A DNA stretch of 64,000 nt from an uncultured Trueperaceae bacterium (GTDB taxonomy: Bacteria > Deinococcota > Deinococci > Deinococcales > Trueperaceae), in contig CAWCXJ010000008.1 of assembly GCA_963799485.1 (NCBI GenBank), positions 192,001-256,000 on the forward strand, in the 5' to 3' direction. The notes under the pieces are model-generated. The model ran no database searches. It saw nothing but the letters and a program-made list of their open reading frames with translations, and was not told the DNA's origin. Shown here one piece after another: positions 1-62,857 of this stretch. Both the position numbers and the translations under genes were made by a program. Position 1 is the first letter of the stretch, and every line of letters begins with the position of its first letter.

Positions 1-744
1 GAGTGGCGGCGCGTGTTGCGGGCCGCTCTCAAACACCGGGCGGTGGGGCCGCAGGCGTTTTTTGTAGCGCGGGCGCTCCCGGCGTACCGGGCGTATGTTG
101 CGGCGTTTTCCGGCGCGGCGCGGCGTACCGGGGCGACGCTTGTCGCGGGCTCGAGCTTTCTCCCGCATATCGAAAACGAGGCGGCGCGCGGACTGCACGT
201 CGCCGATGGACGGGTGCAAAACGTGGCGTATACCTTCGGGCCGACGGGCACTTTGCTGGGGCGGAGCGGGAAACGTTACCTGACCGGGGGGCTCGAGTCG
301 CGTCTCGGCTTGTCCCGCGCCCCGGCTGAGAGCCTGCGCGTCTTGCACACCCCGGCAGGGCGCGTCGGGGTAGCGCTCTGTTTAGACGGGTTTTACAGTT
401 CGGTGTTGGAGACCTTCGACGGTCTAGGCGCGGACATCGTGGTGCAACCGAGCGCCAACTACGCCCCCTGGACGCGCCGCTGGCCCCCCGACGAAAGCTA
501 TTCGGAGGGCGAGGCGTGGCTGAGTTTGGGTCTCCGGGCCGGGCTGAGAGGGCGGCAAACGATCCGTTACGGCGTCAATCCGATGCTGGTCGGCGGGATG
601 TTCGAGCTGCGCGCCGAGGGGAGAACGAGCATCGTCGCCAATTCGCGCTACCTCGAGGCCGAAACAGAAGGCTACAGCGGCGTCGTGGCGCTCGCGCGGA
701 GCTGTGACGCCGAAGAGGTTGTCAGGACGACCGTAGAACTTTAA
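1..744 (+). CDS. Carbon-nitrogen hydrolase (nitrilase superfamily), 5'-truncated by the window edge
   Basis: Nitrilase-like motifs SGKRYL (Lys) and GVALCLDGF (Cys), plus GADIVVQP. Confidence 0.7.
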   Translation, partial: EWRRVLRAALKHRAVGPQAFFVARALPAYRAYVAAFSGAARRTGATLVAGSSFLPHIENEAARGLHVADGRVQNVAYTFGPTGTLLGRSGKRYLTGGLESRLGLSRAPAESLRVLHTPAGRVGVALCLDGFYSSVLETFDGLGADIVVQPSANYAPWTRRWPPDESYSEGEAWLSLGLRAGLRGRQTIRYGVNPMLVGGMFELRAEGRTSIVANSRYLEAETEGYSGVVALARSCDAEEVVRTTVEL

Positions 745-820
745 CCCCAACCCTCGGGGCCGGTTTACGGCGTCTTCGGGCGGTACCGCAAGAACCCGCT
801 ACGCCCGTTAAACTGATGAG

Positions 821-2701
821 ATGGTGTTGTCGGCCCTTTATGACGTGGAAAAGTTTTACGGCGAGCAGGTGGTGCTGGACGGCGTCACCTTGGAGCTGCG
901 CGCTTCATCACGAACGGCCTTGATTGGGCGTAACGGGGCGGGAAAGTCAACAATTTTACGGCTTCTCTTAAACCAAGATGCGCCCGACGGCGGCAGCGTC
1001 TTTCGGCGCGACGGGGTGAGCGTCGCGATGTTGGCGCAAGACCCCATCATCCCCCCCGGGATAAGCATTTTGGAGCTTTCCGAAACGGCGTTTGCCGAGC
1101 TGGACGAACTCGAACTTGGGTTGCAGGGGCTCGAGCACGAAGGCTTGGACGACCCCGAGGTTTACGCCCGCTGGGAAGTTCTGCACGAAACCTTCGAGCG
1201 GCGCGGCGGCTTTGAACGGCGTTCACGTAGGGATTCGGTACTCTTTGCCCTCGGGTTTCGCGGGCGCGAACACGAGGTCGCCGGCCACCTCTCCGGCGGC
1301 GAAAAAACGCGCTTGGGGCTTGCGCGCCTGTTGATGGCGCAACCCGACGTACTGCTGATGGACGAACCGACGAACCACCTCGACATGGCGATGCGCGACT
1401 GGTTGGGCGGTTATTTGTCGCGCTATCCGGGCGGCGTGCTGCTCGTCTCGCACGACCGGGCGTTTCTGGATGAGACCTGCGACGCGACCGCCGAAATCTC
1501 ACAGGGGGCGCTCCGGACGATGAATACGACCCCGACGCGTTACCGCGAAGCGCGGGCCGAGCAGGAGCGGCTCGAGGCCGCCACCCGCGCCAATCAGCAA
1601 AAAGAGCACGAGCGCCTCGCCGCCGCCGCCACCCAGATGAAACGCTGGGCCGGTCAGAGCGAAAAACTCCACCGCCGCGCCAAGGCGATGGAGCGCCGCA
1701 CCGAACGTTACGCCGCCACGATGCTCCCCGACGCCGAGGCTGCCGAGCGCCGGACCCGCTTTACCTTTCCCTGCGACGACTCCGGCGAAATTGTCTTGCA
1801 GGCGCAGCATTTGAGTAAAAATTACGGCGGTGAACAGCTTTTTAACGACGTGGACTTCGTTTTACGGCAAGGCGAACGCGCCGCGCTCGTCGGGCCGAAC
1901 GGCGCAGGAAAATCGAGCTTTTTACGGGTCGTTTTGGGCGAAGCGCCGAGCGACGACCCGCGCGCGTTGTTGCGCTTCGGCTCCCGTGTCCGCGTCGGCT
2001 ACTACGACCAGGAACTGCGCGGCGTCGAACCGGACGCAACCCTGTTTGAAGAGTTGGTCCGGCTCGTCGGTGACGGGGCGGCGCACAATCTCTTGGGGCG
2101 TTTTTTGTTTCCCTATGACGCGCAGTTCAAGCTTGTGCGTAACCTTTCCGGCGGCGAACGGGCGCGCTTGGCGCTCCTTAAGCTCACCCTTGGCGAGTAC
2201 AACTTTCTGGTGCTGGACGAACCGACAAACCACTTGGACGTCGAGATGATCGAAGCGCTCGAGGCTGCCTTAGCCGCCTACACCGGCACGCTCTTGATCG
2301 TCTCGCACGACCGGCGCTTTATCGCCCAAACGACCGACCTCGTGTGGGAGCTGGATAGTGGGCATTTTACGGCGTATGAAGGCGACTGGAGCTTTTACGA
2401 GCGTAAACGCCGTGAGCGGAGTTCTGAAGCGCCCGAAGCCGAGTCGGTACAGGTCGAAACTCCCAGAGGCGAACCCAGAGGCCCCTCGAGATGGCAACTC
2501 GGGCGCGACCAGGAGGCGTTAGAGGCGCGGATTGCCGAACTCGAGGCTGAACTCGGCGCGTTGACGCAAAAGCTTACGGCTCCGCAAACGCTCAGCGCCG
2601 ACGCGCTTGTGGAGGTGAGTGAGCGGCACGGACAGCTCGAGGCCGAACTCCTAGACGCGATGGCCCGCTGGGAAGAGACGGCACAGAGGCTCGAGGTCTG
2701 A
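821..2701 (+). CDS. ABC-F family ATP-binding protein
   Basis: Two NBDs (GRNGAGKS/LSGGE/DEPTNHLD and GPNGAGKS/LSGGE/DEPTNHLD), no TM segments, C-terminal coiled coil. Confidence 0.92.
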   Translation: MVLSALYDVEKFYGEQVVLDGVTLELRASSRTALIGRNGAGKSTILRLLLNQDAPDGGSVFRRDGVSVAMLAQDPIIPPGISILELSETAFAELDELELGLQGLEHEGLDDPEVYARWEVLHETFERRGGFERRSRRDSVLFALGFRGREHEVAGHLSGGEKTRLGLARLLMAQPDVLLMDEPTNHLDMAMRDWLGGYLSRYPGGVLLVSHDRAFLDETCDATAEISQGALRTMNTTPTRYREARAEQERLEAATRANQQKEHERLAAAATQMKRWAGQSEKLHRRAKAMERRTERYAATMLPDAEAAERRTRFTFPCDDSGEIVLQAQHLSKNYGGEQLFNDVDFVLRQGERAALVGPNGAGKSSFLRVVLGEAPSDDPRALLRFGSRVRVGYYDQELRGVEPDATLFEELVRLVGDGAAHNLLGRFLFPYDAQFKLVRNLSGGERARLALLKLTLGEYNFLVLDEPTNHLDVEMIEALEAALAAYTGTLLIVSHDRRFIAQTTDLVWELDSGHFTAYEGDWSFYERKRRERSSEAPEAESVQVETPRGEPRGPSRWQLGRDQEALEARIAELEAELGALTQKLTAPQTLSADALVEVSERHGQLEAELLDAMARWEETAQRLEV

Positions 2702-2855
2702 TTACAGCGGTGTCGAGGAGGTTTGACAAAGTACCGCGCGAACCCTGCCTTCAAATACGACCCGGCTGCCCCTGGCGCTTTGGACCGCACGCCTGTTTGG
2801 TTGCACGGTTGAAGACGTGTTTAATGAAGACGTATTTTGAGGGCGAGCAGGCGGG

Positions 2856-3296
2856 TTAAACCTCGAGTAAACGCTCGTCTAGACGTACATCGGCGTAGCT
2901 GCGCTCGCCCATGAGATACTTGAGCATACTCTCTTCGTTTTGCGGCAATATGACGCTGCGGCTGCCTAGATGACCCTCGAGCCGCCCTACCTCAAAGCGT
3001 CCCTGAAACACGTCGGTCATCCCCCGTGCGAAAAGCAGTTGCGGATTGAAAATACCCAGACAAACGAGCCGCCGCTCCGCGAAGGTGTGGAGCGTCAGGT
3101 GCGCTTCGGGCAGCGCCAAAGCGACCGAAACCCCGTCCGGAAACCAGTAGCTGACCCTGACCGGGTCGCCACTCACGGAACCGAGCGTGTTGAGAAGCCG
3201 GTAAGCCGTTTCGATAACCCAGCCCTCGTCGTGCAGGGGAGCCGACGCGCCGTAGCCGTCGACAATCATATGTGCGCCGTAGCCGAGCGAGTTCAC
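2856..3296 (-). CDS. S-adenosylmethionine decarboxylase (SpeD)-like protein lacking the cleavage serine
   Basis: GAHMIVDGY and GVSVALALPEAHLTLHTF resemble the SpeD G.H..D and ESH..IHT motifs, with Ser replaced by Ala. Confidence 0.65.
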   Translation of the reverse strand: MNSLGYGAHMIVDGYGASAPLHDEGWVIETAYRLLNTLGSVSGDPVRVSYWFPDGVSVALALPEAHLTLHTFAERRLVCLGIFNPQLLFARGMTDVFQGRFEVGRLEGHLGSRSVILPQNEESMLKYLMGERSYADVRLDERLLEV

Positions 3297-3481
3297 CCGC
3301 GTAGCCTATCACGCACGGGTACGCCGCGAAATTAGACCGTAAAACCGTAAGCTGCACCCCGACCATGCAAAAACCCTCGCCATAATGCTGCAAAGAGGGT
3401 CGCTGAAGTAGTGTGGTTCGGCTTTAGCTGCTCGAGCCGTAGTCATGCAGTTATGTTGCGCGCCGGAAACGGCTCGAGCGC

Positions 3482-4798
3482 CTAGCCCTTGACACCCCCG
3501 GCGGTGTACTGCCCGGTCAGCGCGTTTTGAAACGAGTAGAAAATAATCAGAATCGGCAAGCTACCCAGCACGGCGCTTGCCGCGAGTGTGCCCCACTGCG
3601 TCTGAAAGGCGTTGTTGGTAAACGCCCGGAGGCCGATCCCGACCGTCCATTTATCGTCGCCGGTCAGGAGGATGTTCGCCAAAATGAACTCGCTGTAGGT
3701 TCCGATAAACTGCAACAAGAAGATAAACAGCAGCATCGGTACGCTGATGGGCAGGATAATCCGCCAGAACGCGCCCCAGCGGGTCGTGCCGTCAACGAGC
3801 GCAGCTTCTTCTAGACTCGGACTGATCGACTCGAGATAGCCCTTAAAAATCCACGAGGCAAAGGCAATCGCCCCACCCGAATAAGCCAAAATCAGGCCCG
3901 CAAAGGTGTTTAACAGCCCCAGGTAGTTCATCAGGTAAAAAATCGCCACCAGCGCCATAAAACCGGGAAACATCTGCACGAAGATAAAACTCAGCAGGGT
4001 ACCGTAACGCCCCTCGAACTTCATCCGGGCAAAGGCGTACCCGGCGGTCGTGCTGATGAGTACGGCAAAAATCCCGGTCAGGCCCGAGACCAAGAGCGTA
4101 TTGCGGATAAAGAGCACGACTTTTTTCTCGCTGCTCGAGAGTACCCTTTCGCCCGCCTCGTTGACCGAAAAGAACTGGTTGTTGTTGATACTGACGACCA
4201 GCACCGCCGCGCTGCCGACGAGCGTCCAGATGGCAGCTGCTTTTATCCGCTCGGTAGCGGGCGTGTTAGGATTCGCATTGTTCGCTATAATTGCGCCGAT
4301 AAGGACAATCGCGGCAACGACCAGCAGACCGACGAGCAACCACTGGTACCAGAACAAGTTCGTCTCGCTCAGGACGTTCTGGTACTGCACCAGCGAGAAC
4401 TTCGAGGGGTCGGGCAAGATACCCGCGCGCACCAGCAGGTTGCCGGTTTGCGGCGGCGGCGTATTGAGGTTGTTGATGCGGTTGAACGAAACTGCCAAAA
4501 GGTTGATGACCGGATAGAGCGTCAAGAGAATAAACACCCAGATAAAGGTGTGACTCACTGCCGTCGTCGCGTAGGCGCTCGCCTTGTTGCGGCTGGTCGC
4601 GCGTCCGTAGAGATACGCGCCCAGGATAATCGCGGTGACGACGACGACAAAGCCGATGAGCAGTTTTAGCCAACCGTAAGGAATGACCAGAAAGCGGCTC
4701 CGGTCAATTTGCGCGAAAGCGACGCCAAGTGACAGCAGGCCGAGGCACGCCGCCGTGCGAAAAAGCTTCGTGTTCGTAAAGTCCAGATAGGCGTTCAT
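3482..4798 (-). CDS. malG: Maltose/maltodextrin ABC permease MalG
   Basis: EAA loop SLEEAALVDG, QMFP, AGYAFAR; lies in the mal cluster. Confidence 0.85.
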   Translation of the reverse strand: MNAYLDFTNTKLFRTAACLGLLSLGVAFAQIDRSRFLVIPYGWLKLLIGFVVVVTAIILGAYLYGRATSRNKASAYATTAVSHTFIWVFILLTLYPVINLLAVSFNRINNLNTPPPQTGNLLVRAGILPDPSKFSLVQYQNVLSETNLFWYQWLLVGLLVVAAIVLIGAIIANNANPNTPATERIKAAAIWTLVGSAAVLVVSINNNQFFSVNEAGERVLSSSEKKVVLFIRNTLLVSGLTGIFAVLISTTAGYAFARMKFEGRYGTLLSFIFVQMFPGFMALVAIFYLMNYLGLLNTFAGLILAYSGGAIAFASWIFKGYLESISPSLEEAALVDGTTRWGAFWRIILPISVPMLLFIFLLQFIGTYSEFILANILLTGDDKWTVGIGLRAFTNNAFQTQWGTLAASAVLGSLPILIIFYSFQNALTGQYTAGGVKG

Positions 4799-6399
4799 AC
4801 GTTCGATTCCTCCTTAAGCGCGCCCGTGACGCGGAAATTGATCAAGCTGATGGCGATGGTGATAAAGAAAATTAAGAGCGAAATTGCTGAACCCAAGCCG
4901 TAGGCGTACCCTCCGACCGCCTGAAACGCCTCGTTGTACGCCCACGAGATAAGGATGTCGGTACCGCGCGCCGTCGAGGTGCCGCCGTCGTAACCGGGGC
5001 CGCCGCCGGTCAGGAGGTAAATGAGGCCGAAGTTGTTGAAGTTAAAGGCGAACCCTGTCAGGGTAATCGGCACGAGGGCGGTGCGCAGGAGCGGTAACGT
5101 CACGCCCGTCACACGCCGCCAGACGTTCGCGCCGTCAATTTTGGCGGCTTCGTAGAGGTCTTCGGGGATCGCTGAAAGTGCGCCGAGGGTTGCGGTCATC
5201 ATAAAGGGCAGGCCGAGCCACAGGTTCACCAGCAAGATTGCGCCCCTCGCAGGCCACACGTCGCCGAGCCAGTCGAGGACGGGCAGGTCGAGGAGCGCCA
5301 GAATGCGGTTGACCGCGCCGAAGTTCGAGTTCAAAAAACCTTTCCACACCTGAATGGTGATGATGCTCGGCAGCGCCCACGGGATAATCAGCAGGGTGCG
5401 GTAGAGGTTACGAAACCTGAGGTTCGGGTTGTTCAGGAAAATTGCCAAAAATACGCCGAAGACGGTGTTGATAAGGACCGTTGACACGGCGAACAAGATG
5501 TTCCACAAGAATACCGGGCCGAGTGAACGGGTTGCCTGATTAAAGATAGTACGGAAGTTTTGCCAGCCGACGAAACCGAAGTCGTTGTAGCGCGTGATGG
5601 CGGCGTAGGTCTCACCTTGGGGCAGCGGTTCGTCAAGGGTGACGGTATTGCCGTCAACTGAAAGCATCGTCCGGCGGACGCCCGCACTCGGTACCGCGAC
5701 GCCGACGTTCTCTAGATTTACCGCGCCGGGCGGCGCACGTTCCAAGGTCAAGGTATTGCCGTCTACAGCGGTGACGTTAAACTCGGCGCTGAAACCGATG
5801 TCGGTCAGCTCGAGCGTCACCACCGAGGGCGTCGTGCCTTCGGGGAGCGGTTCGGCGAGGGTCAGGGTGGTGCCGTCAAGGGCGGTTGCCGCTACGCTCA
5901 AATTACCCGAAACATCGATGAGCGCCGGAACGTCTGTGCAGCCGTTCCTTAAGGCTTGACAGCGGAGCGTCGCAGCGTCGGCGACCTCTACCGTCGCCCC
6001 CTGGACACTCGCAATATCGGTGCGGCTACTGATATTGAGCTCACCGTTACGAATCCCCGCGTAGTCGGTAAACGCCAGAATAACCGTTAAGATAACCGGG
6101 AAAAGCGCGAAGGTCAGCAGAAACAAGATAGACGGCAGCAGGTAGTACCACGGCATAATCCATTCAAAGCGCCGGGCAATGACCTGAAGCGCGACAAGCA
6201 GTACGGCTAAACCGATCAGTACCCCGACGTAAAGCGGCACGTTTGGTACCACCTGCTGAACGAGCCAGGTACCGGCAAAGGCGGCGACGGCGGCGATGGT
6301 AATCGCAAGCAGCAGCAAGAGGAGCGCTTTCCACAGCCGTGCGCCCGTCCCGCCTGAACCTTTAGGCAAATGATCCGAAACCGGACGTGAAATGTCCAC
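4795..6399 (-). CDS. malF: Maltose/maltodextrin ABC permease MalF
   Basis: LYEAAKIDGA, FAFNFNNF, TDILIS motifs; large periplasmic insert. Confidence 0.87.
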   Translation of the reverse strand: MDISRPVSDHLPKGSGGTGARLWKALLLLLLAITIAAVAAFAGTWLVQQVVPNVPLYVGVLIGLAVLLVALQVIARRFEWIMPWYYLLPSILFLLTFALFPVILTVILAFTDYAGIRNGELNISSRTDIASVQGATVEVADAATLRCQALRNGCTDVPALIDVSGNLSVAATALDGTTLTLAEPLPEGTTPSVVTLELTDIGFSAEFNVTAVDGNTLTLERAPPGAVNLENVGVAVPSAGVRRTMLSVDGNTVTLDEPLPQGETYAAITRYNDFGFVGWQNFRTIFNQATRSLGPVFLWNILFAVSTVLINTVFGVFLAIFLNNPNLRFRNLYRTLLIIPWALPSIITIQVWKGFLNSNFGAVNRILALLDLPVLDWLGDVWPARGAILLVNLWLGLPFMMTATLGALSAIPEDLYEAAKIDGANVWRRVTGVTLPLLRTALVPITLTGFAFNFNNFGLIYLLTGGGPGYDGGTSTARGTDILISWAYNEAFQAVGGYAYGLGSAISLLIFFITIAISLINFRVTGALKEESNV

Positions 6400-6419
6400 G
6401 TATGACCCCTTTCAGAACT

Positions 6420-6457
6420 AAAAAAGCCGCTAGGTCGTGTTTCCCTAGCAGCTTTTT
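6420..6457 (-). terminator. Stem-loop after malE (terminator-like or mRNA stabiliser)
   Basis: AAAAAAGCCGCTAGG...CCTAGCAGCTTTTT imperfect inverted repeat with a T-tract on the minus strand. Confidence 0.55.
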
Positions 6458-6471
6458 CTTTAAGTATTGCC

Positions 6472-7662: not shown

Positions 7663-7861
7663 AAAGTTCCTTTCGGTGCTGAACTTGACACAAGCGCAGC
7701 GGCCCCGTGGGGCATTTATTTTTTACTTACACCTTAGAGCTTACACAATAAATTGAGGACAGTAAAGCGTGTTAGCCCTCAGTTGATTTTCTGTGCTGCA
7801 CGCTGCTTGCAGGGCTCGAGCGTGTTAAAAAATGCACGCTTGCAGTGTTAAGCTGGGCCGA

Positions 7862-10799: not shown

Positions 10800-10843
10800 G
10801 TAGGGCAATCGTAACAGGCGCGGGCGGCGCTGCCGATGAAGTT

Positions 10844-11326: not shown

Positions 11327-11513
11327 GGTGTCTACGCTACACCGTCGCTTTAGGCCGCGCTCGGTTTACCGCAGTGCAAAGCCCCCGCAAAGCCCCCGAC
11401 GCACGGCTCGAGGCTCGAAAAAAGGTCTCAGAACTATCGGTCGGCAACTGTTAGAAGGTGGAACATCGGGGCTCGAGCCGTCGGTAAAAATTGCCGCTGG
11501 CACGGTGCGCATC

Positions 11514-12947: not shown

Positions 12948-12993
12948 GGGGTCTCCTTGGGGCAGATGTGGGGGCTAGGGTCGGCTTAAAACG

Positions 12994-13032: not shown

Positions 13033-13038
13033 GCTTAA

Positions 13039-14005: not shown

Positions 14006-14021
14006 CGACTTGCAAGCCGGT

Positions 14022-14311: not shown

Positions 14312-15406
14312 CTAGACCTTGTGAAGCAAATAAACCCGTGGGTAGTGTCCGCCGTGAAAGACCTTGAAGGATGTTCTAAGCTGCCAGAGCGTCTGGTTTT
14401 GTAAAAGGTGCTCGAGCAGCCTGACTTCGTGCGTAAGTAGCACAAACCGCGCGCCCGGCGCAGCGACGCGCGCGCACTCGCTCAGCAGAGCCGGATAGAG
14501 CGCCGCGTTTTCCTTGTGCGTCCCTACGGCGTCTCCCCACGGCGGGTCGCTCACGATGACGTCGACGCTGCCCTCAGCGAGCCCGGTCGCGGTCGCGTCG
14601 GCCTCGAACAGTTCTGCCGTAAACCCTGCCGCCGCGACGTTTTGCGCGCTGCACGCAAGCGCTGCCGGATTCTGGTCGCACCCCGTAAACTGTAACGAAC
14701 TGTTTTGGAGTCCTGCTTCGGCAAGCAGCGTGCCGCTCCCGCACATCGGGTTGAACACGCGTTCACCGGGTTTTATCTCGGCAAGTCCGACCATGACTGC
14801 CGCGAGCGCCGCGTTGAGGCCGCCCGGCAGATTGCAAACGCGCCATGCTCTGGCAGAAAGGGGCCGAGGTGTCAGGCGTAAAAGGACTTCCCAACCGTTT
14901 TTGGGTGAGCGTCTTACCCGCATAAGCAGGTCGCCCTCGGCGTCTTGAACCATTCCGGTCGTTTGGGCTAGCTGTTCGCCCAAACGCCTAAACACCGCCG
15001 AGTCGTCTCCGGCGGCGCTCAGGCGAAACCCCGTAAACCTCGCCTGCGCCGTTCGGTCTTTGATTTCTCTGATGAGCCGCGAGAGATGCTCATGCCCGAG
15101 TAGCGCTTTGGGGCGCGGCACCGCAAACGTCAAAAGCCGGTACACCGAGACGACCGTCCGCAAGTTTGAAAGTTTTACGGCGTCACCGACGTAGCGAAAG
15201 GCGACTGCACCCGGTTTTTCTCTGACCTGCTGCACGCCCTTGACGCCTTTAAGTTCGGCTAGGGCAAAGGGCTCGAGCCCCGGCAATACCTCGGCCTCGA
15301 AGTCTGTTTCTTTAGGCTTGACACCTTCAGAAGGGGCGGTTCGCGGGGCCGCCTCTGGCTTGTAAGGGCGTTTGGGTCGGTGGGCTGGACGTCGTTTGGG
15401 CGGCAC
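14312..15406 (-). CDS. SAM-dependent RNA methyltransferase (UPF0020/THUMP-like)
   Basis: NPMCGSGT and SDPPWG; start set at GTG 15406, 7 nt after TAGAGT. Confidence 0.75.
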   Translation of the reverse strand: MPPKRRPAHRPKRPYKPEAAPRTAPSEGVKPKETDFEAEVLPGLEPFALAELKGVKGVQQVREKPGAVAFRYVGDAVKLSNLRTVVSVYRLLTFAVPRPKALLGHEHLSRLIREIKDRTAQARFTGFRLSAAGDDSAVFRRLGEQLAQTTGMVQDAEGDLLMRVRRSPKNGWEVLLRLTPRPLSARAWRVCNLPGGLNAALAAVMVGLAEIKPGERVFNPMCGSGTLLAEAGLQNSSLQFTGCDQNPAALACSAQNVAAAGFTAELFEADATATGLAEGSVDVIVSDPPWGDAVGTHKENAALYPALLSECARVAAPGARFVLLTHEVRLLEHLLQNQTLWQLRTSFKVFHGGHYPRVYLLHKV

Positions 15407-15460
15407 GTTCTCCACTCTACCGGACAGAGCCGCGCGTCGCGTCCCGGTAAGCTTAAAAAG

Positions 15461-16567
15461 ATGCCGCGCTCGCTCTACCTGCACGTTCCGTTTTGCCCTC
15501 ATATCTGCCCTTACTGCGACTTTCACAAGATGCGGCGGAAGCGCGGGCTGGTCGCGGCGTACCTCAAACGTTTGCGTGAAGAGGCCCAGGCGCTGCACGC
15601 CGAGTTTCCCGGCACGCTGGACACGGTTTATTTCGGTGGTGGCACGCCGTCGCACCTTCAAGATGATGAGCTGGCGTTTGTAGTCGAGACTTTACGGCAA
15701 ACGTGGGGTTTTCCGGGCGCGCAAGAGACGACGCTCGAGGCCGACCCCCTCACCTTCGACGAGGCGCGTTTGAAAATGTTCAAGGCGCTTGGGTTTGACC
15801 GGCTTTCTATCGGTTTGCAATCGACCCAGGATGAAGTCTTGAGATTTCTGGGACGGCAACACACCGGGCGTGAAGGCTTGGCTGCCGTCGAAATGGCGTT
15901 AGCCGCCGGGTTTACGGTCTCCGCCGACCTGATTACGGCGGTTCCGGGTCAAGACGCGGCGCGCGACCTGCATACACTCGCGCAGACCGGTGTGTCGCAT
16001 GTCAGCGTCTACAACCTGACGATTGAGCCCGATACGCCCTTTGCGCGGCGCGGCGTCCGGGTGGACGAAGACAAAGAGGCCGACGACTACGCGCTTGCCG
16101 ACCGAATCTTGTCGGGTTACGGGCTGGCACGCTACGAGGTCTCGAGCCACGCCCAGCCCGGTTTTGAGGCGAAGCACAACAGCGTCTACTGGTCGGGCGA
16201 ACATTTTCTGGCGCTGGGGCCGTCGGCGGCGAGCTTTGTCCCGTCACGGAGAGATACCCTGCGTCTGGTCGGCGAACGCCGCACGAACCCGCCGATCAAG
16301 GGTTGGCTGGCGGGGGAGAAGCCCGACGTGCTGCCCGTAAACCCTGAAGCGTTTGTTCAAGACGTATTGATGACCGGACTCAGAACGCGGCGCGGGGTCG
16401 ATTTGGTGCGTTTGGGTGAACGCGCCGGGTTCGATGTCAAAGCGCATTACAGCGACGTTTTGATTTCTTTAGAAGACGCCGGCTTGACCGAATACTGTGG
16501 CTTTTACTTGCGCGTAACCCCTGCCGGACTGCTACAACTCAACCGGGTTACAGCGGCGTTTTTCTAG
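15461..16567 (+). CDS. hemW: Radical SAM heme chaperone HemW
   Basis: YLHVPFCPHICPYCDF, FGGGTPS, YEVSS, HNSVYW. Confidence 0.88.
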   Translation: MPRSLYLHVPFCPHICPYCDFHKMRRKRGLVAAYLKRLREEAQALHAEFPGTLDTVYFGGGTPSHLQDDELAFVVETLRQTWGFPGAQETTLEADPLTFDEARLKMFKALGFDRLSIGLQSTQDEVLRFLGRQHTGREGLAAVEMALAAGFTVSADLITAVPGQDAARDLHTLAQTGVSHVSVYNLTIEPDTPFARRGVRVDEDKEADDYALADRILSGYGLARYEVSSHAQPGFEAKHNSVYWSGEHFLALGPSAASFVPSRRDTLRLVGERRTNPPIKGWLAGEKPDVLPVNPEAFVQDVLMTGLRTRRGVDLVRLGERAGFDVKAHYSDVLISLEDAGLTEYCGFYLRVTPAGLLQLNRVTAAFF

Positions 16568-16923
16568 GGCTCGAGCAAACCTCACGCCAGCACAAACAGG
16601 GCGGGGGCGAACACGCCGATAAAAACGCCTTTAACCCATTTCAGCAACATCTGTAATCGCCCTTGCGGTTTTACGTTCGTATTCGACTTCGTGCTGCTAC
16701 GGTTCGTAACGCACTGTACCGCTAAATGTTTACGGCTAAACAAGTACACTCACAGCACAGTACCCGTTCGTGGAACTCCGGTACTGTAAGGGTGACAGGC
16801 GTGTTCAGCCGACCTCTGTGACAACAGAATGACAGGTAATGCGGGCAAACGCTGAAAAATACCAAGAACTTTGAAAGGCTACTTTGTGTACCGATTCCAC
16901 CAACTTGTACAGGTCTCGCGTTA

Positions 16924-28600: not shown

Positions 28601-28847
28601 ATACCAAAAAGAGACACCCGAAGCGTTCAAAAGCGCGAGCCGAAAACCTCCTCTGTGGGAACTGGCTCGAGCGGCAGATGTTCGGGCGGGCGAACTTCGA
28701 TATGCGGCAGTGTTTTTACACGGTCAAACGCCCACGGTCGAACTCGCAAACTGGTTCAACAGCCACTTTGTGTGGAGTATCTGTCAAGTCGATTTCGAGA
28801 GACGTCTGTGAGGCGCTCCAAACGCTTACGCTGGGGCTGGAGTCACC

Positions 28848-32109: not shown

Positions 32110-32370
32110 AATCCGTCTCCTGTCACTGTAATCTCAGCATCCTGCTTGTATGTCGTAATTTACGCATCGCAACCGACGGTACTGTACTCTCATATTCGTA
32201 GAGCTGCCCCGTACGGCTGCGTTCTCAAAGCTGGGGAACCTCCGCTCGAGCCGTGTCGGCTGCGCTCCGTGAGCGCAGCCTGGATCAAGGTGACACTTGT
32301 TATGTCCAACGACGCTCATTCGCAGAGCAGCGTGAGGCTAAAGATTGGCGAAAGAGCCCGTGCCTAGCAG

Positions 32371-49925: not shown

Positions 49926-50491
49926 GCCAGCACCTAGGCACCTGCTAGCGTCACCGGTTTTACTGCAAGCGCGCTGTGAGACCCGCGTGGGCATCTGTGA
50001 GTTTAGCTTGTGGCGACTCGCGACCAGTAGCGATGAGACCTTGCTGGAACATGCCGCTCGTCTTGACGAGAAGCAGGTACGGCTTTTTCAACTGTCTATC
50101 GGTGTTGCAAACGGTTGGGCACCAGCCGTGATGTAGACACTGCCCCAGCCCCAGTTAGGCCTCTCAAGTTACTTGCTCGAGGCGCTTGTCCTTACTTTGA
50201 GACCGGGGCAAGTCACGGAAATGCACATAAAAGTAACCTGGTAGCGGCTTACAGAGTCCGTGAGAAGCGCCTTATGAAACGAAACAAGACCAGCGCTTTG
50301 CAGCGTAAGCCGGCGTTGCAAAGCAGCTCGGCTTGACACTTGGCGAAGCCTAAAGTTTGGCAAGCTCGCGCGTACCACCTTAGGGTAGGCGCTTCGGCAG
50401 TGACGTGACCGACTGCTTGCCGACTGCTTGACTGCATAAAACCCTCTGGAGGCAACCTGGGACAGTTGCAGGCGGCGCTATACTAGTCCGA

Positions 50492-52992: not shown

Positions 52993-53063
52993 TCCGGTCT
53001 TCACGGAGCTTTAGGTCTAGCAGCAGCACAGCAGTTCTCACCCGCGCCGTCGTACACTCTTTT

Positions 53064-53723: not shown

Positions 53724-53755
53724 CCTCGCGCGCCTTGCAGCAAGTTATTCCACGC

Positions 53756-55801: not shown

Positions 55802-55903
55802 TTAAACGCACGATTAAACCCGCTAAACGCCTGACAAAGCGGTCAACCGAACTTCTCGGCGCTGTGAGATGGACGCCTATGTCTACCTACCCTATGTCTA
55901 CCT

Positions 55904-57034: not shown

Positions 57035-57156
57035 GTGAACAGTGCGCGCCGCGTAACGACAACGAGCGCAGACCTCCCTCATGGCTTTTCACTCGTTGCT
57101 CGTTGCTTTCTGCATAGCTAAAGAAACGCCGCAGGTGTGGTAAATTGGTGTTTCTG

Positions 57157-59367
57157 ATGGAGACGCTGACGTCGCCCTTACCCGAAACGCTAGACCACAA
57201 AACCGACTACCTGAGCGAACACGACAAAGTGCGTCTAGGGAGCGCGTACAGCTTCGCTGAGGCGGCGCACCGGGGCGTGACGCGCCGCTCCGGCGAGCCT
57301 TACATTACCCACCCGGTCGCCGTCACCGAACTGCTAGCCGAGATGCAGCTCGACGCCGACGCGCTGATCGCCGGGCTTTTGCACGATACCGTCGAAGACA
57401 CCGAGGTTACGCTCGCCGACGTTGAAACGCACTTCGGGGCGCCCGTGCGCCGCATCGTCGAAGGTGAAACGAAGATCAGCAAGCTCAAAATCTCGCGCCT
57501 CGGCAACGAATACGAGGACGAACAAGCCGAAAACCTGCGGCAGATGCTCCTCGCGATGGTCGGTGATGTGCGGATTATTCTGGTCAAGTTCGCCGACAGA
57601 CTGCACAATATGCGTACCCTGCAGTTTATGCCGCCGGAAAAGCAAAAACGCATCGCCCGTGAAACCTTGGAGATTTTTGCGCCGCTCGCGCACCGTTTGG
57701 GGATCAACCACGTCAAGAGCGAATTGGAAGAACTTGGGTTTTTGTACGCCGAGCCTGAACGTTACCGCGCTTTAGAACGCCAGGTACGGCTCCGCCGCGC
57801 CGAACGTGAAGCGTATGTGGCGCGCTCTATCGTGATGCTAGAAGACCGCTTGGCCCAGGAGGGCTTGTCGTTCGATATTGCGGGGCGCAGCAAAGGGCTC
57901 TACAGCGTTCACCAAAAGATTTTACGCGACGCCAAAAACTTAGACCAAATCTTCGACCTGATGGCGATTCGGGTCGTTTTGTCCCCGACGACGCACCTGG
58001 GCCTCAGCTTGGAAGACGAAGAAAAAGCCGTCTGCTACCGCGCGCTCGGGATTATCCATTCGATCTGGACGCCGATACCGGGCCGCTTTAAGGATTACGT
58101 GGCGGTACCCAAACCTAACGGCTATCAGTCTTTGCACACGACCGTTATCGGCTTGCAGGGGCAGCCTATCGAAGTGCAGATTCGCACAGAGCGGATGCAC
58201 GAAGTCGCCGAGTACGGCGTCGCGGCGCACTGGGCGTACAAACAGGGCCTCGGTGAGGCGTCCCCGGCGGCGCTCCAGGGGCGGCTGACCTGGATGAAGC
58301 AGCTCGTCGATGTTGACGAGGGTTCGGAGAGCGCGGGTGCGTTCGTCGATACGGTCAAGACCGACTTGCTCTCTGAACGGGTACTGATCTTTACGCCTGC
58401 CGGTGACATCGTAAATCTGCCGCTCGGCAGTACCCCGATAGATTTTGCCTACCACGTCCATACCCAGGTCGGGCACCGCTGTTCGGGGGCGCGCGTGAAC
58501 GGTGAAATCGTACCGCTTTCGTACACGCTGCAAACCGGCGACCGCGTAGAAATCCTGACAAACCGGGGCGCGCACTACGGGCCGTCTCCCGACTGGCTCG
58601 GGATAGTCGTTACAAGGGGTGCTAAACAAAAGATTCGGCACTATTTCAGGCAACAAGAGCGTGAGGGCACCCTCGAGAGCGCCAAACGCACTTTAGAGCG
58701 CGCGCTGCGCCGTAAACACCTGTCGGTAGCGCATTACACCGGTAAAAAGCTCGAGGTCGCCGCCCGCAAACTTATCAACGCCGATTCGGTCGACGAGCTT
58801 TATTTGGCACTCCACGCCAAACGCGTGACTCCTAAACAGATTTTGCTCGAGCTGCTCCCCGAAGCGCCCAAACCCACACCGCCTGCACTGCCTACCCCGA
58901 AACGCGGTACCGGCGGCATCTACTTGGACGGCCTCGACGCGCCCGCCAAACTCGCACAGTGCTGCAGTCCGGTGCGCGGCGACGAGGTCGTCGGCTACAT
59001 CACGCGCGGGCGCGGCGTCACGGTTCACCGTTGCGACTGTCCGAACGTTAAACACCTGATGCGTAAAGAGGCCGAGCGCCTCGTGCACGTGACCTGGGAC
59101 GTCGCGACCGGCGAGGTCTACCCGGTCGATTTCGAGGTCGTCGGTGTCGACCGTCCCGGTCTGCTGATGAACGTTTTAGATGTGATTGCCGGAATGAACA
59201 AGTCGGCCTCGAGAGTCACCGCCGACGTGCAGAGTAGCGCAAACGCCCGGATTCATTTCCGCATCGACGTCAAGGACCAAACCGAGGTCGACCGGGTCAA
59301 AGAAGCAGTGCTGCGTATCGACGACGTGACGCGTATCTACCGCTCACGACCGGGGCTTAAAGCGTAA
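57157..59367 (+). CDS. rel: Bifunctional (p)ppGpp synthetase/hydrolase Rel
   Basis: GEPYITHP, LLHDTVED, RFKDY, YQSLHT, EVQIRT; TGS and ACT domains. Confidence 0.95.
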   Translation: METLTSPLPETLDHKTDYLSEHDKVRLGSAYSFAEAAHRGVTRRSGEPYITHPVAVTELLAEMQLDADALIAGLLHDTVEDTEVTLADVETHFGAPVRRIVEGETKISKLKISRLGNEYEDEQAENLRQMLLAMVGDVRIILVKFADRLHNMRTLQFMPPEKQKRIARETLEIFAPLAHRLGINHVKSELEELGFLYAEPERYRALERQVRLRRAEREAYVARSIVMLEDRLAQEGLSFDIAGRSKGLYSVHQKILRDAKNLDQIFDLMAIRVVLSPTTHLGLSLEDEEKAVCYRALGIIHSIWTPIPGRFKDYVAVPKPNGYQSLHTTVIGLQGQPIEVQIRTERMHEVAEYGVAAHWAYKQGLGEASPAALQGRLTWMKQLVDVDEGSESAGAFVDTVKTDLLSERVLIFTPAGDIVNLPLGSTPIDFAYHVHTQVGHRCSGARVNGEIVPLSYTLQTGDRVEILTNRGAHYGPSPDWLGIVVTRGAKQKIRHYFRQQEREGTLESAKRTLERALRRKHLSVAHYTGKKLEVAARKLINADSVDELYLALHAKRVTPKQILLELLPEAPKPTPPALPTPKRGTGGIYLDGLDAPAKLAQCCSPVRGDEVVGYITRGRGVTVHRCDCPNVKHLMRKEAERLVHVTWDVATGEVYPVDFEVVGVDRPGLLMNVLDVIAGMNKSASRVTADVQSSANARIHFRIDVKDQTEVDRVKEAVLRIDDVTRIYRSRPGLKA

Positions 59368-59447
59368 ACAGGTCGAGCGGTGCAGCATTCGGCAAAAAGT
59401 CCGAACAGTCTTTTCGAACAGTCTTAAAAGCCAAACAGTCTTAGGTG

Positions 59448-60200
59448 CTAAAGTCCGGGCTCTTGTTTAGCGCCGCTAACGACAACAGTCTCACGCGCAC
59501 GTTCGTTGTGGAGCGGCACCCCTACTGCTTCTCGGTTGAGTAGCTGCGCCGCAGTTCGGAGCGAAAAAACCAACCAGCAGACGATGCCGAGCATTTTAGA
59601 CAGGTCTTCGATAAGCAGACCGGCATCCCCGCGGATGCCAAACAGAAAACGGAGCAAACCTTGATCGGTTAAAACTGAAAAGGCAAAAAAGCCGAGAGCC
59701 AGACCGAGAAGTAAAAAATCCGTTTCTAACAGGAGTTGAATAAACCCGACAAAGCCAGCTGCCAAGATGCCGTAAACAGCGTACAGAGCAAGCTCGGAAA
59801 TACCTAACCAGACCGGTAGCATCGCCTCATGCAACATAAACAGGTCGTCTAACGCAAGAAGGCCGGCAAAAACGGCCATGTAAACCAAAAAAACTTTTTC
59901 CAAACGTCTGCCGGGTACTGTAGCGGTCGTCCGCCGGAGCAAAAAAGCGGCGAACGCGTATACAACCGCGCTCGTCCACCAAAGTAAAACCCCGACGTTT
60001 GAGAGTGCGCCGCGGTAGAACATCACGTCGCCCTGTAGGTCGTAAATTTCGGCGTTGGTATCGCGTAGTAGCGTACCGATCGGCACGAACCGCTGAACCG
60101 CAAGCATGAGATAAATGACTACAACCGGCAAAAGCACAGTCAAGACAACCGTCCGTAAAAGAGGTACTTGCTTGAGCAGGCGGGATAACAGAAGGTGCAT
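59448..60200 (-). CDS. Hypothetical polytopic membrane protein
   Basis: About 7 TM, LDDLFMLHE, IEDLSK; SD AAAGGA. Confidence 0.7.
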   Translation of the reverse strand: MHLLLSRLLKQVPLLRTVVLTVLLPVVVIYLMLAVQRFVPIGTLLRDTNAEIYDLQGDVMFYRGALSNVGVLLWWTSAVVYAFAAFLLRRTTATVPGRRLEKVFLVYMAVFAGLLALDDLFMLHEAMLPVWLGISELALYAVYGILAAGFVGFIQLLLETDFLLLGLALGFFAFSVLTDQGLLRFLFGIRGDAGLLIEDLSKMLGIVCWLVFSLRTAAQLLNREAVGVPLHNERARETVVVSGAKQEPGL

Positions 60201-60378
60201 GAGAGTCCTTTGAAGAGATGGTGAAATCGTCAGCACTGTGTAGAAATATCCGGTCGGCTGACGCCGGGCTGACAGAACCTCAAGATAGCTTAGCAGATTC
60301 TGCCGCCGCTACTACGTAAATACCTGCGGATAACAGCTTTGAAACCAACTGCTGTCAACCTCGCGTATAAATGTGCGG

Positions 60379-60801
60379 ATGACCCGCCGCCTTGAGCTAG
60401 CGACACTAAACTTGGAAAATATGAAACGCTCGAGTTGGCACAGTATTCTGACGTTCGCAACGGTTACCGGATTTATCGGCTCGAGCACGCTCGCTATGGT
60501 GCTGAGCCTGACAACACCTACGGGAGCAAAAATACTGGTTTTTACAGGCGGTTTTTTTGGAACGCTACTAGTCGGCGCGCTGCTCCCCCGCGTCCGGCAA
60601 AATGTGCTCGGCGTATTCCAGTCTGCTACGAGTCGGTCGGAACAAACGTCGGCGTCCAGGCGTAACCGCGCCCCAGCGCCCAGGTACCTGCGAAACACGC
60701 CCAGCAAGCTGCGCCGGTTAGAGCGGCATATGCTGCTGAGGAGTCGCTACAAATACACGCGCGTGAGCCTGCCGCAGAAAAAGAGAGTGGCAAGAAAGTA
60801 A
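60379..60801 (+). CDS. Hypothetical 2-TM protein with a basic tail
   Basis: Two hydrophobic segments; no family recognised. Confidence 0.5.
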   Translation: MTRRLELATLNLENMKRSSWHSILTFATVTGFIGSSTLAMVLSLTTPTGAKILVFTGGFFGTLLVGALLPRVRQNVLGVFQSATSRSEQTSASRRNRAPAPRYLRNTPSKLRRLERHMLLRSRYKYTRVSLPQKKRVARK

Positions 60802-61139
60802 GCTGCTTGCAGGTCTGCCTAAAGCACAACTGCGTCTCGCCGGTCGGTAGCGTAAAACCTGTGGGTACCGCGAGAGGCTGCTCGAGCAGAGCAAGCTCAC
60901 GTAACACACAGGTTTTCTCGACCACTAGGGTCTCTTGCCGAAGCTCGCCGCTGCAGGTGCAAACAGCGAGCTTACCGGCTTTAGCGGGCTGCCCGGTGCT
61001 AAAAAATTGTGCCGCTGTCTAACGGGGATGTCGGGTGGGGTAATACCTGCTCGGATAGCGCCTGACGCATCCGGAACGAAGCCCGGTAAGACGAGGCTGA
61101 CGCCAGGTTCGGTTCCTGTGCCTGCCCGGCTACCCTCCG

Positions 61140-62729
61140 CTACACCATGACCCGCTCGTCATCGAGACCGGTCGCACCGCTCGGGTGCGGGGGGCGTTGT
61201 TCGGTTATCTGCGTATCACCGCTACCGTCGGTGCAGCGTACTGTAAAAGTGTGTTGGCCCGACTCGAAAGGCCACTCGAAACGCCACAACACCCAGGTCA
61301 GCTCAGACATCGGCTCGCGGAGCTGTGCGGGCTGCCAGTCGCCGTCATCGACCTTGACCTCGACGCTGCGAATCCCCCGCGCCCCCGCATAGGCGATACC
61401 GCCGACCGGGATTACCTCACTATCTTTAGCGTCGGCAATCATCATGTTCGTCGCTACCGTGTCGATCACCGAGGTGGCCCGTACCTGCGCCTCGCGGTCC
61501 CATGAGCGCACCACCCAGTAACCGGGTTCCCATGAATCTACGACCTCGATGGTTTCAATCCATTTGGGTTGCTTCATACCGTAGTGGTCGGGGATATAGA
61601 TGCGGAGCGGAAAACCGTGCTTGATACGGAGCGGTACCCCGTCCCAAGCGTAAGCGAGGACGATACGCGGGTCATTGCGGATATCGGCTAGCGCTACGTA
61701 CTCGAAAAAGCCGTCGGCAGACGTGATTCGCAGATGTGAGGCGTTTTCTTGCAAGCCCCACTCGGGCAGCAGGTTTTGTAGCGGGACGCCCGTCCAGCGC
61801 GTGGTGCCGATCAGCTCGCCGCCGACAGGGTTTGAAATACACGACATGGTGACGAACTGATCGGTCGCCTCAAAAGCGCGCATCTCCGAGAGCGTGTACT
61901 CTCTGGGCGTATCTACCAGCCCCTCGACCCGTAAACGCCAGTCGGCTGCTTGAAGGGTAGGGGGCGCAAGGTTGATATCGATACGGTAGTGCTGTTCCAG
62001 GGGGGTATATTCGGGGCGTGTTCCCTGTACGGGCGCAACCGCTGCACCGGCGTTGGGGAGCGCATTGTTCGCCGACCAGCGCTGACCTTCAGGCGGCGCT
62101 TCTTCGGCGTTCCGGCGGCTCAGCACCGCCCCGACGCCTGCGCCCGCTACGGTAATAAGTGCCGCCGCGCTCCCGACCCGCACGATAAATTGCCGTCGGT
62201 TGACGGGCTCGGCGGTGACAGCCGGGGTAACGATTCGGGTCACGCGGCGTTGTAACCATGCCAGACCCAGACCCCAAACGACAAGTGCCAACAAAACCCA
62301 AAGCCCGTCTGCAAGCGTCGCGCCCTGCCGGGTCGCGCTGATCGCACCTAAAATTAAACCCAGTACGAGACCGTAACTTGAACCGGCGAACAGGCTCGAG
62401 CGCCGCCCCCGGAAAAAAGCAAAGTACGCCGCCCCGCCAATGAGGGTCAGCCCGAGGGTCAAAGCTACCGCCATCGCCTGTTCTGCCAGCTTGGCGTTTT
62501 CTCTGACTGACAACCCGAGGGCGTTAATCATCCCGACCATGCTGTCGATGCCGGTCGTAATCACACTTCCCGGTAAGATGCGCGAGATTAGATCGAAAAT
62601 ATCAAAAGGGATAAAAGGTACGCCGACAGTCGTGTAGGCCAGGAACAAGAGCGCCAGCAGCGGCGCGCTCAGCAGCAGGGCGAGAGCCGCACCGACGACG
62701 AGAGCAAGCCAGATATTGGGTTTTTTCAC
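61140..62729 (-). CDS. Membrane-bound sulfite oxidase-family molybdoenzyme
   Basis: Internal NRRQFI, MSCISNPVGG, HGFPLR, YGMKQPKW. Confidence 0.88.
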   Translation of the reverse strand: MKKPNIWLALVVGAALALLLSAPLLALLFLAYTTVGVPFIPFDIFDLISRILPGSVITTGIDSMVGMINALGLSVRENAKLAEQAMAVALTLGLTLIGGAAYFAFFRGRRSSLFAGSSYGLVLGLILGAISATRQGATLADGLWVLLALVVWGLGLAWLQRRVTRIVTPAVTAEPVNRRQFIVRVGSAAALITVAGAGVGAVLSRRNAEEAPPEGQRWSANNALPNAGAAVAPVQGTRPEYTPLEQHYRIDINLAPPTLQAADWRLRVEGLVDTPREYTLSEMRAFEATDQFVTMSCISNPVGGELIGTTRWTGVPLQNLLPEWGLQENASHLRITSADGFFEYVALADIRNDPRIVLAYAWDGVPLRIKHGFPLRIYIPDHYGMKQPKWIETIEVVDSWEPGYWVVRSWDREAQVRATSVIDTVATNMMIADAKDSEVIPVGGIAYAGARGIRSVEVKVDDGDWQPAQLREPMSELTWVLWRFEWPFESGQHTFTVRCTDGSGDTQITEQRPPHPSGATGLDDERVMV

Positions 62730-62857
62730 GTTTTTCTCCTCAACAGGTTAAGGGGCCTGATAAAGCTGGTATATCAGGTGAGGTAGCTGACTCGAGTCGT
62801 ATTAAAAGAGGTTCTATAACGTAAATGTAGCGTGAACGAGCAAGATTTTACGTCAAA

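Follow-up and report, generated by a model that had tools for sequence, protein, structure and literature searches.

Highly iterated palindromes (HIPs) are known from cyanobacteria, where HIP1 (GCGATCGC) and alternative words of the same kind have been described (Elhai 2015, PMC4390886; Xu et al. 2018, PMC5861425); in their accessible parts, both papers treat cyanobacteria only and do not mention Thermus or Deinococcus. Here we analyse a 64-kb stretch of DNA (the window; C8:192001-256000 of a 3,655,195-base assembly in 15 contigs, G000) in which the palindrome CTCGAG and its extended form GCTCGAGC recur from end to end. We find that CTCGAG is a signal in the DNA itself and a true highly iterated palindrome of a Truepera-genus chromosome. 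An earlier note on the window had likened the word to HIP1 in a host outside the cyanobacteria. The host is as claimed, the closest named record with a syntenic methylase locus being 'uncultured Truepera sp.', and the likening is apt: the word is palindromic and hyper-abundant, occurs in every frame and in spacers, persists between species and is carried on resident mobile DNA.

CTCGAG is also a known methylation target. Active type II N6-methyladenine (m6A) methylases of this word, with no cognate nuclease named, are listed in S3 Table of Blow et al. 2016 (PMC4752239) for three Deinococcota: Marinithermus hydrothermalis DSM 14884 (M.Mhy14884I, 94.6% of sites detected, gene described as 'Eco57I'), Meiothermus chliarophilus DSM 9957 (M.Mch9957IV, 94.1%) and Meiothermus ruber DSM 1279 (M.Mru1279II, 99.5%). 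The accessible parts of that paper carry no remark that we saw on the abundance of CTCGAG in those genomes. They do describe an orphan CTCGAG methylase of Nocardia whose sites cluster at the replication origin, between dnaA and the next replication gene. The Nocardia enzymes in S3 Table are 5-methylcytosine (m5C) methylases or of unknown type and have a Vsr partner, and m5C methylases of CTCGAG are paired there with Vsr-type genes in both Nocardia and Rhodopseudomonas. In Mycolicibacterium smegmatis, REBASE predicts CTCGAG as the target of a MamA homologue and its neighbouring nuclease (MSMEG_3214), according to the consulted part of Randall et al. 2020 (PMC7526240). A preprint (10.64898/2026.06.24.734251) reports CTCGAG and TCGA methylation shared within one host-phage group of hot-spring genomes, with the phylum not identified in the part available. 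Our search, from which subscription journals were mostly absent, found no printed report of CTCGAG abundance for Thermus, Deinococcus-Thermus, Truepera or Meiothermus.

CTCGAG is the commonest hexamer of the genome

The window contains 126 copies of CTCGAG, or about one per 508 bases, against a mean of 19.85 (standard deviation 4.34, largest 32) in 100 dinucleotide-preserving shuffles. The extended form GCTCGAGC occurs 43 times against a shuffle mean of 2.68 and a maximum of 7. The earlier note had estimated by eye more than 100 and about 40 copies where about 20 and about 2 were expected, and these figures agree, as does the span it gave, from 149 to 62796: the first copy lies at 149-156 and the last core copy ends at 62796 (Table 1). 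A crude open reading frame (ORF) caller assigns 81 copies to the Leu-Glu frame, 6 and 15 to the other two frames and 24 to non-coding DNA. The note had also listed 14 positions as intergenic. Twelve of these fall outside the ORF calls and two (14262 and 14281) lie inside one called ORF, a placement that we do not count as an error because the caller is rough.

A comparison of observed with expected counts of 6-mers and 8-mers, which the note had proposed, carries the excess to the whole genome. CTCGAG is the commonest of all 6-mers, with 7252 copies where 1163 are expected at order 0 (ratio 6.2; the runner-up among palindromic hexamers reaches 2.1), and GCTCGAGC is the commonest of all 8-mers, with 1755 copies (17-fold). 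Every contig has between 1.5 and 2.1 copies of CTCGAG per kb. The density falls only to 1.65 per kb in multi-copy DNA, compared with 2.00 in the remainder; this fraction, defined by blocks of 700 bp or longer with an identity of at least 95%, amounts to 175 kb and probably consists of insertion sequences and duplicated parts of prophages. Thus an abundant short palindrome far above composition, as HIPs are characterized by Elhai 2015 and Xu et al. 2018, is found here. The word is not that of HIP1 proper, since CGATCG is depleted in this genome (172 copies, 1163 expected).

The preference for the extended form is a preference of its halves. Whether the DNA is coding or not, G stands at -1 (and C at +1) in 50-53% of copies, and the two outer letters of GCTCGAGC are mutually independent (order-6 Markov ratio 0.96); each half-site therefore has its own weak preference. 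We rejected a longer hidden motif or a repeat element as the source of the copies: beyond -1 and +1 the flanks hold little information, and extended palindromes are rare.

Table 1. Positions of CTCGAG copies in the window and of two methylase loci discussed in the text
Feature	Position	Strand	Basis or remark
Dispersed CTCGAG, 126 copies, 43 of them extended to GCTCGAGC	149..62796	.	Counts against shuffles; ORF split
Two GCTCGAGC copies in one non-coding spacer, 42 bases apart	3430-3437 and 3472-3479	.	Outside called ORFs
GCTCGAGC, non-coding	7814..7821	.	Word positions and ORF calls
Core copy (11407-11412) and GCTCGAGC (11471-11478) in one spacer	11407..11478	.	Both non-coding
GCTCGAGC, non-coding	16569..16576	.	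Word positions and ORF calls
GCTCGAGC, non-coding	28665..28672	.	Word positions and ORF calls
GCTCGAGC, non-coding	32244..32251	.	Word positions and ORF calls
Core copy (60429-60434) and two GCTCGAGC copies (60479-60486, 60880-60887)	60429..60887	.	All outside called ORFs
Final window copy, core only, non-coding	62791..62796	.	Word positions and ORF calls
Eco57I-family methylase locus on C6 (L016)	G000:C6:24502-28941	minus	TGA at L016:2941-2943
C5 cytosine methylase of the densest lineage (L277)	G022:C15:66464-70351		Counterparts in G026 and G030

The excess is not a by-product of coding

The simplest alternative is that CTCGAG accumulates as a by-product of Leu-Glu dipeptides and preferred codons. 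As this would have it, 4949 of the 7252 copies are in the CTC-GAG frame, the Leu-Glu dipeptide is 1.23-fold above expectation (Glu-Leu 1.04), and in high-G+C relatives synonymous shuffling removes most of the excess. We examined the point in 3183 genes, called with a crude caller of our own and covering 82% of the genome. A strict dicodon-preserving shuffle is useless for frame 0 because it keeps the frame-0 copies by construction, and we replaced it with synonymous shuffles, codon-order shuffles, a Leu-Glu codon-pair table and Markov models of non-coding DNA.

When synonymous codons are shuffled within each gene, 1496, 37 and 219 copies are obtained in frames 0, 1 and 2, whereas the genes contain 4949, 299 and 880, an excess of 3.3-, 8- and 4-fold; shuffling codon order gives 1133, 38 and 188. 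Copies in non-Leu-Glu frames, which the note had reported for the window, are thus a feature of the genome as a whole. Codon usage predicts that 15% of the 9236 Leu-Glu pairs should be written CTCGAG, but 54% are. Among these pairs the one-letter synonymous neighbours of the word are depleted 1.7- to 5.7-fold relative to expectation from the margins (CTCGAA, 209 observed and 1190 expected; CTTGAG, 155 and 331; CTAGAG, 187 and 310; CTGGAG, 427 and 736), and the two-letter neighbours are in excess.

Non-coding DNA (654 kb) contains 1133 copies, compared with 184 expected at order 0 and 179-321 under Markov models of orders 1-3. At 6.15, the ratio matches that of the genome overall. The transition neighbours are undepleted in this DNA (TTCGAG 0.92 and CTTGAG 1.02 of expectation). 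Within the window, the complete ORFs hold 99 copies against a mean of 26.9 and a maximum of 39 in 200 synonymous-codon shuffles, and the non-coding part (10,178 bases) holds 24 against 3.1 expected at order 0. The earlier note was to be abandoned if the enrichment vanished on shuffling and intergenic density proved ordinary; neither happened. The frame, non-coding and window shuffle tests rule out a codon or dipeptide by-product, to which we give virtually no chance, and the excess beyond codon usage and amino-acid motifs, extending into non-coding DNA, is of the kind expected of a HIP.

Copies are evenly spaced and conserved within the genus

We compared the gaps between copies with a null model in which the observed number of copies was drawn from protein-compatible positions and from random non-coding positions (300 draws). 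The coefficient of variation of the gaps is 0.935, below the null value of 1.025±0.012 and below its lowest draw (0.990); for eight other abundant hexamers it is 1.11-1.26. Gaps shorter than 40 bases make up 5.0% of the total (7.6% in the null) and gaps longer than 1500 bases 3.9% (5.3%). Genes of at least 600 bp that lack CTCGAG number 228 of 2184, compared with 300±12.7 in 100 draws. The copies are spread more evenly than chance, with both short and long gaps too few, and such even spacing is not expected from a process that acts on each site independently.

The positions of the copies persist between species. We compared this genome with G001 and G005, two other members of its genus, from each of which 480 kb was read; the comparisons comprise 224 and 246 gene pairs, respectively. 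At four-fold sites, third-position identity to these genomes is 0.53 and 0.59, respectively, against a chance level of 0.32. Where a Leu-Glu pair is conserved and is a CTCGAG site here, it is also a site in 0.82 (G001) and 0.83 (G005) of cases; where it is not a site here, the relative has CTCGAG in 0.22 and 0.15. The corresponding odds ratios of retention, 16 and 26, exceed the medians of 4.3 and 6.2 for control words, namely the commonest codon pairs of 119 and 160 dipeptides, so that copies within the genus are more conserved than control words, as in HIPs. The one-letter variants CTCGAC and GTCGAG are retained at only 0.47-0.56. The largest odds ratios, 131 and 122, belong to TCG-AGC, which is CTCGAG in the third frame. 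In G002, a third relative within the genus, the figures are 0.81 against 0.29. In G008, from another genus, the figures are 0.42 and 0.44 (25 gene pairs, n=30 sites) and positions are not conserved; they therefore seem to turn over at greater distance. Density nonetheless stays near 2 per kb in G001, G002, G005 and G008, which span two genera, despite G+C contents of 57-67%. This genome shows no loss of sites, with 53 copies found here only and 55 in the relative only in one comparison, and 66 and 49 in the other.

Conservation of this kind could also arise if a sequence-specific repair bias or gene-conversion drive turned near-cognate sites into CTCGAG and restored them after mutation, the word having no function of its own. 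Restoration would itself produce the persistence of 0.82 between species, the shortage of one-letter Leu-Glu neighbours and the surplus of two-letter ones fit conversion of near-cognate sites, and resident mobile DNA is enriched almost equally, as if all DNA in the cell were acted on. The pairing of m5C CTCGAG methylases with Vsr-type genes in the S3 Table entries for Nocardia and Rhodopseudomonas (PMC4752239) offers a precedent. However, a drive that is autonomous at each site predicts neither the over-even spacing nor the deficit of genes without a copy. Further observations weigh against it: this 99.99% complete genome has no Vsr homologue (PF03852), the complete C5 cytosine methylases adjoin ParB-like and terminase-like ORFs, as phage genes do, and the undepleted TTCGAG and CTTGAG of non-coding DNA are unlike the signature of very-short-patch repair. 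We consider a repair drive unlikely, although it retains some weight. Vsr-type very-short-patch repair in particular we reject, given the missing PF03852 match, the phage-like setting of the complete C5 methylases and the undepleted transition neighbours.

The excess is wide but patchy across the order

Across the order, 31 genomes have between 5 and 3795 copies of GCTCGAGC each. We surveyed word frequencies in samples of 22-80 kb from each of 20 relatives, and CTCGAG is the top palindromic hexamer in 17 of them. A strong excess beyond synonymous shuffling, clear in the Leu-Glu frame and in the others, is seen in G001, G005, G008, G006, G012 and G017, and in the small sample from G009. The excess is extreme in G022 and G030 (family f5, 45-50% G+C), which carry 5.6-5.8 copies per kb, 24- to 30-fold above expectation. 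It is moderate in G002, which belongs to the same genus as our genome and has 67% G+C (1.4-fold in the Leu-Glu frame, 3.1-fold in the other frames), weak in the high-G+C genomes G010, G011, G013-G016 and G020 (1.3- to 2.4-fold after shuffling), and absent from G007 and G018 (about 1-fold after shuffling). In G019, of family f2, the word is avoided: the 80 kb sampled contain 3 copies instead of the roughly 27 expected. The genus of G019, which includes G023 and G027, has genomes of 4.2-4.8 Mb (about 66% G+C in the one sampled) with only 20-49 copies of GCTCGAGC each. No XhoI-family nuclease was matched in five relatives that lack or avoid CTCGAG, in a search whose positive control matched in no genome.

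The excess across the order is thus wide but patchy, and the comparison across Deinococcota that the earlier note had suggested finds it in many sampled relatives and finds it absent or reversed in some. The note's remark that restriction sites are normally avoided holds for the genus of G019.

Lineages also differ in what surrounds the word. G022 and G030 have no flank rule and G017 has G at -1 in 80% of copies. The family member G006 (42% G+C) has RCTCGAGY, with A at -1 in 53%, G in 44% and C or T in 3%, a rule that resembles the lineage variants of cyanobacterial HIP1.

Such variation is what might be expected if a chromosome-organising or nucleoid protein bound CTCGAG directly, whether methylated or not. 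The flank rules vary by lineage (none in G022 and G030, R...Y in G006, G...C in G017), the half-site preference with independent sides (0.96) is expected for a dimer, the even spacing with too few long gaps is in keeping with such a protein, and the excess extends to lineages in which the Eco57I-family methylase described below was not found. Against this, we identified no candidate protein, six bases are short for a specific architectural site, and CTCGAG is methylated in three other Deinococcota according to S3 Table of PMC4752239. Because of that methylation, a reader blind to the methyl group is not the simplest reading, and we regard direct binding as distinctly unlikely.

The sharing of the word by whole lineages and by their resident mobile DNA would also suit an orientation-independent 'self' tag for DNA uptake or for recombination with relatives, comparable to uptake sequences or Chi sites. 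The known examples of both are, however, longer than CTCGAG and not palindromic. Long AddAB-like nucleases do not track the word across the 31 genomes: they are present in genus g17, which has no excess, and none was found in the three genomes of the densest lineage, each 94% complete. We reject a Chi-like reading because AddAB-like proteins fail to follow the word. Being a palindrome, CTCGAG also differs from the oriented words that uptake receptors or RecBCD/AddAB recognise (no receptor of the first kind was sought), and a 'self' tag for uptake or recombination appears very unlikely.

A partnerless methylase is conserved in the family

The candidate CTCGAG methylase is a gamma-class adenine methylase encoded on C6; it carries the motifs DPSFGGG and NPPF and matches the Pfam families Eco57I and M_Eco57I_C. 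This Eco57I-family enzyme was found in all five of the other genus members and, in the family as a whole, in 12 of the 18 genomes besides ours. The search, which covered 31 genomes, gave no match in families f2, f3 and f5 and one weak match in family f4. The frame is open over its full length in 11 relatives. Judged from sequence by eye, its neighbours comprise one glycosyltransferase-like ORF and two ORFs for membrane proteins, and the same genes flank the methylase in G001, G003, G005 and the 'uncultured Truepera sp.' record.

The 4.4 kb around the C6 methylase contain no nuclease gene, and the Pfam XhoI family has no match in this genome, although the positive control of that search matched in no genome. 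Of the two marks of a type II system, an adjacent nuclease and avoidance of the target, the first is missing and the second is reversed, the word being 6.2-fold enriched. The locus differs from XhoI/PaeR7I-type restriction-modification in having no nuclease beside the methylase and in the enrichment of its word; it is G019 that shows avoidance, which restriction usually leaves behind. With that type, and with the M. smegmatis MamA/MSMEG_3214 pair as far as the consulted source describes it, the system here shares the recognition word, which an adenine methylase reads there and may read here.

There is a parallel with the published Deinococcota methylases. Going by the S3 Table entries, those enzymes have the same phylum and target word, no nuclease is named for them, and the 'Eco57I' label of the Marinithermus gene is the Pfam family found here. 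The methylase family comprises 5366 proteins at an E value of 1e-10 or better, and members 50-56% identical to the Truepera enzyme come from Meiothermus luteus, M. rufus, other Meiothermus, Planctomycetes, Acidobacteria and Chloroflexi; those of named Meiothermus species are 53-56% identical. A sequence tie to the published CTCGAG methylases was not made, as the only named members are from Meiothermus luteus, M. rufus, unnamed Meiothermus and other phyla. Phylum, enzyme type, Pfam label and the absent partner link the Truepera enzyme to those methylases but could not prove the connection. The nearest solved structure is M.BseCI, a weak match (E 0.0056).

The Nocardia system, as outlined in PMC4752239, is similar in having a conserved partnerless methylase with the same target and a suggested housekeeping role.

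We also examined the DNA around homologues of the enzyme, of which 80 loci were taken and 76, each at least 6 kb long, were used. All six loci labelled Deinococcota have a 3.4- to 7.3-fold excess of CTCGAG in their flanks. One further locus, L169, is a 12-kb contig from a metagenome-assembled genome labelled Myxococcota, with a methylase 51% identical to ours and 45 copies of CTCGAG (10.8-fold). A density of this order is otherwise found only in Deinococcota-labelled records, and L169 may be wrongly binned or may represent a second phylum with the trait.

The densest lineage, with one CTCGAG per 175 bases, has a different enzyme in common. A C5 cytosine methylase is 80-81% identical in all three of its genomes (G022, G026 and G030; Table 1), and the gene after it in G022 and G026 is likewise conserved (about 500 residues, 71% identity) and has an RMKL-like methylase domain. 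This C5 methylase was not found in our genome. No single methylase common to all the enriched lineages was found; among the 31 genomes the Eco57I-family enzyme is confined to the Truepera family.

The other methylases of the genome are an MmeI-like enzyme, two type I M subunits, a 1090-residue N6/N4 protein, two DUF1156 proteins and C5 methylases, two of them complete (contigs C2 and C3) and one partial. The complete C5 genes lie in prophage-like modules (L001, G000:C2:19047-23006; L002, G000:C3:34389-38336) with an identical gene order, in which a ParB-like ORF, the methylase, a small ORF and a terminase-like ORF follow one another; the non-methylase ORFs were named by eye from sequence. The catalytic halves of these two enzymes are alike and their C-terminal, target-recognising halves differ. 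The window itself has, at 14312-15661 on the minus strand, an ORF of about 449 residues with an RMKL-like (UPF0020) methylase domain. It is weakly like tRNA and rRNA guanine methylases and is probably an RNA methylase rather than a DNA methylase.

A selected, methylation-linked mark as the favoured explanation

We favour, tentatively and with slightly less than even confidence, the explanation that CTCGAG is a genome-wide mark under selection and linked to methylation. Selection would act on the density and spacing of copies, leaving no stretch of DNA without one. Each copy would be a CTCG(m6A)G target of the chromosomal Eco57I-family methylase that lacks a nuclease partner, so that the array would form a regularly spaced methyl mark, briefly half-methylated after replication. 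A putative reader protein would require that no point on the chromosome lie more than a few hundred bases from such a mark, and its role might lie in post-replicative repair, in chromosome organisation or in telling own from foreign DNA. The reader would be a second, Deinococcota-specific component beside the methylase. Such a component is implied because the methylase alone is insufficient: homologues occur in other phyla without an excess, and 18 loci of this kind with ordinary CTCGAG counts rule the enzyme out as a sufficient cause.

Several observations weigh against this explanation. In our genome an in-frame TGA interrupts the methylase gene between its motifs I and IV, which sets it apart from the published Deinococcota enzymes; even so, as noted above, sites have not been lost. 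The adjoining glycosyltransferase-like gene is likewise split into two overlapping frames (L016:350-1240 and 1221-1553), and either both genes are recent, decaying pseudogenes or both defects are local assembly errors. Public reads do not cover the TGA; contigs assembled from them end one base before the codon, and the best run contains 0.13 of the sampled words. The 18 loci of other phyla mentioned above have homologues at least 42% identical and flank ratios of 0.3-3.4. Within the order, no match to the methylase was found in the densest-lineage genomes G022 and G030 (24- to 30-fold, 94% complete), in G017 (9-fold, 92% complete) or in G009 (5-fold, 67% complete), whereas G011, G013, G015 and G018 carry the gene yet exceed codon usage only slightly. 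No clustering of CTCGAG around dnaA, of the kind described in Nocardia, is seen, the word being spread genome-wide. A repair bias restoring mutated sites would likewise conserve positions and deplete one-letter neighbours. Overall, the presence of the methylase tracks the excess poorly, and both the specificity of the enzyme and the reader protein are putative.

The methylation link drawn in the earlier note therefore stands in part. A partnerless Eco57I-family methylase is conserved, and CTCG(m6A)G methylases are published from relatives; the stop codon in this genome and the failure to find the gene in the densest lineage do not fit. Similarly, the orphan CTCGAG methyltransferase that the note would have searched for has a partnerless candidate in 12 of the 18 other family genomes, but that gene is broken here and its specificity is putative. 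For the HIP trait of a co-occurring orphan methylase that recognises the core, the outcome is the same: a candidate is widespread in the family, broken here and not found in the densest lineage.

Set beside HIP1, as described in the accessible parts of the cyanobacterial papers, CTCGAG shares several features. Each is a short palindrome and the most frequent of all words of its length, occurs in genes and in spacers, exceeds what codon use can explain and is conserved above control words, and in each case there are lineage-specific flank variants, related lineages without the word and orphan methylases that recognise, or here may recognise, the core. The differences are the six-letter core CTCGAG, the phylum and the enzymes, which for HIP1 are the Dam-like DmtA and the CGATCG cytosine methylase DmtC and here an Eco57I-family adenine methylase. 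The enrichment is also lower here, 6-fold for the core and 17-fold for the 8-mer, than the 55- to 228-fold quoted for HIP1. A periodicity on a scale of tens of kilobases is reported for HIP1 (Xu et al. 2018); the spacing analysis here covers the evenness of gaps between neighbouring copies.

Other over- and under-represented words

The genome contains a second hyper-abundant word, which is not palindromic: GCCGTAAA has 886 copies and its complement TTTACGGC has 866. The commonest 10-mer is TTTTACGGCG, with 277 copies. At the other extreme, TTTAAA is nearly absent (22 copies, 271 expected; 0.03 of the maximal-order Markov expectation), and GGCGCC (210, 2410 expected), GGATCC (53, 1163 expected) and GCATGC (83, 1163 expected) are strongly avoided. 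The avoided words look like footprints of past or present restriction systems.

Implications

Work on HIPs has dealt almost entirely with cyanobacteria and has left their function unexplained, so that a second case would make the phenomenon a general one. What is new here is a HIP with another word, another class of methylase and another phylum. It is possible, though we would not yet lean on it, that several lineages of Deinococcota run a second, independently evolved HIP system, in which the density and even spacing of an orphan-methylated palindrome are under selection because a putative reader protein requires methyl marks at intervals of a few hundred bases. With the same reserve, these lineages would be Truepera and its family, Meiothermus-labelled genomes and an uncultured low-G+C family, but not the sister genus with Deinococcus-size genomes that avoids the word.

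The order offers contrasts that go beyond those of HIP1, in that sister lineages span avoidance, no excess, 6-fold and 30-fold enrichment, and methylomes have already been published for cultured relatives. The over-even spacing favours selection for coverage over a simple mutational drive. Annotation is affected as well: the word shapes codon choice, accounting for 54% of Leu-Glu pairs, and modestly lifts the frequency of the Leu-Glu dipeptide (1.23-fold); codon- and k-mer-based tools will be biased in CTCGAG-rich genomes. If the proposed system is real, the thirty-year-old question of what HIPs do would become testable outside cyanobacteria, because cultured Meiothermus and Marinithermus have measured CTCGAG adenine methylation, as S3 Table of PMC4752239 records.

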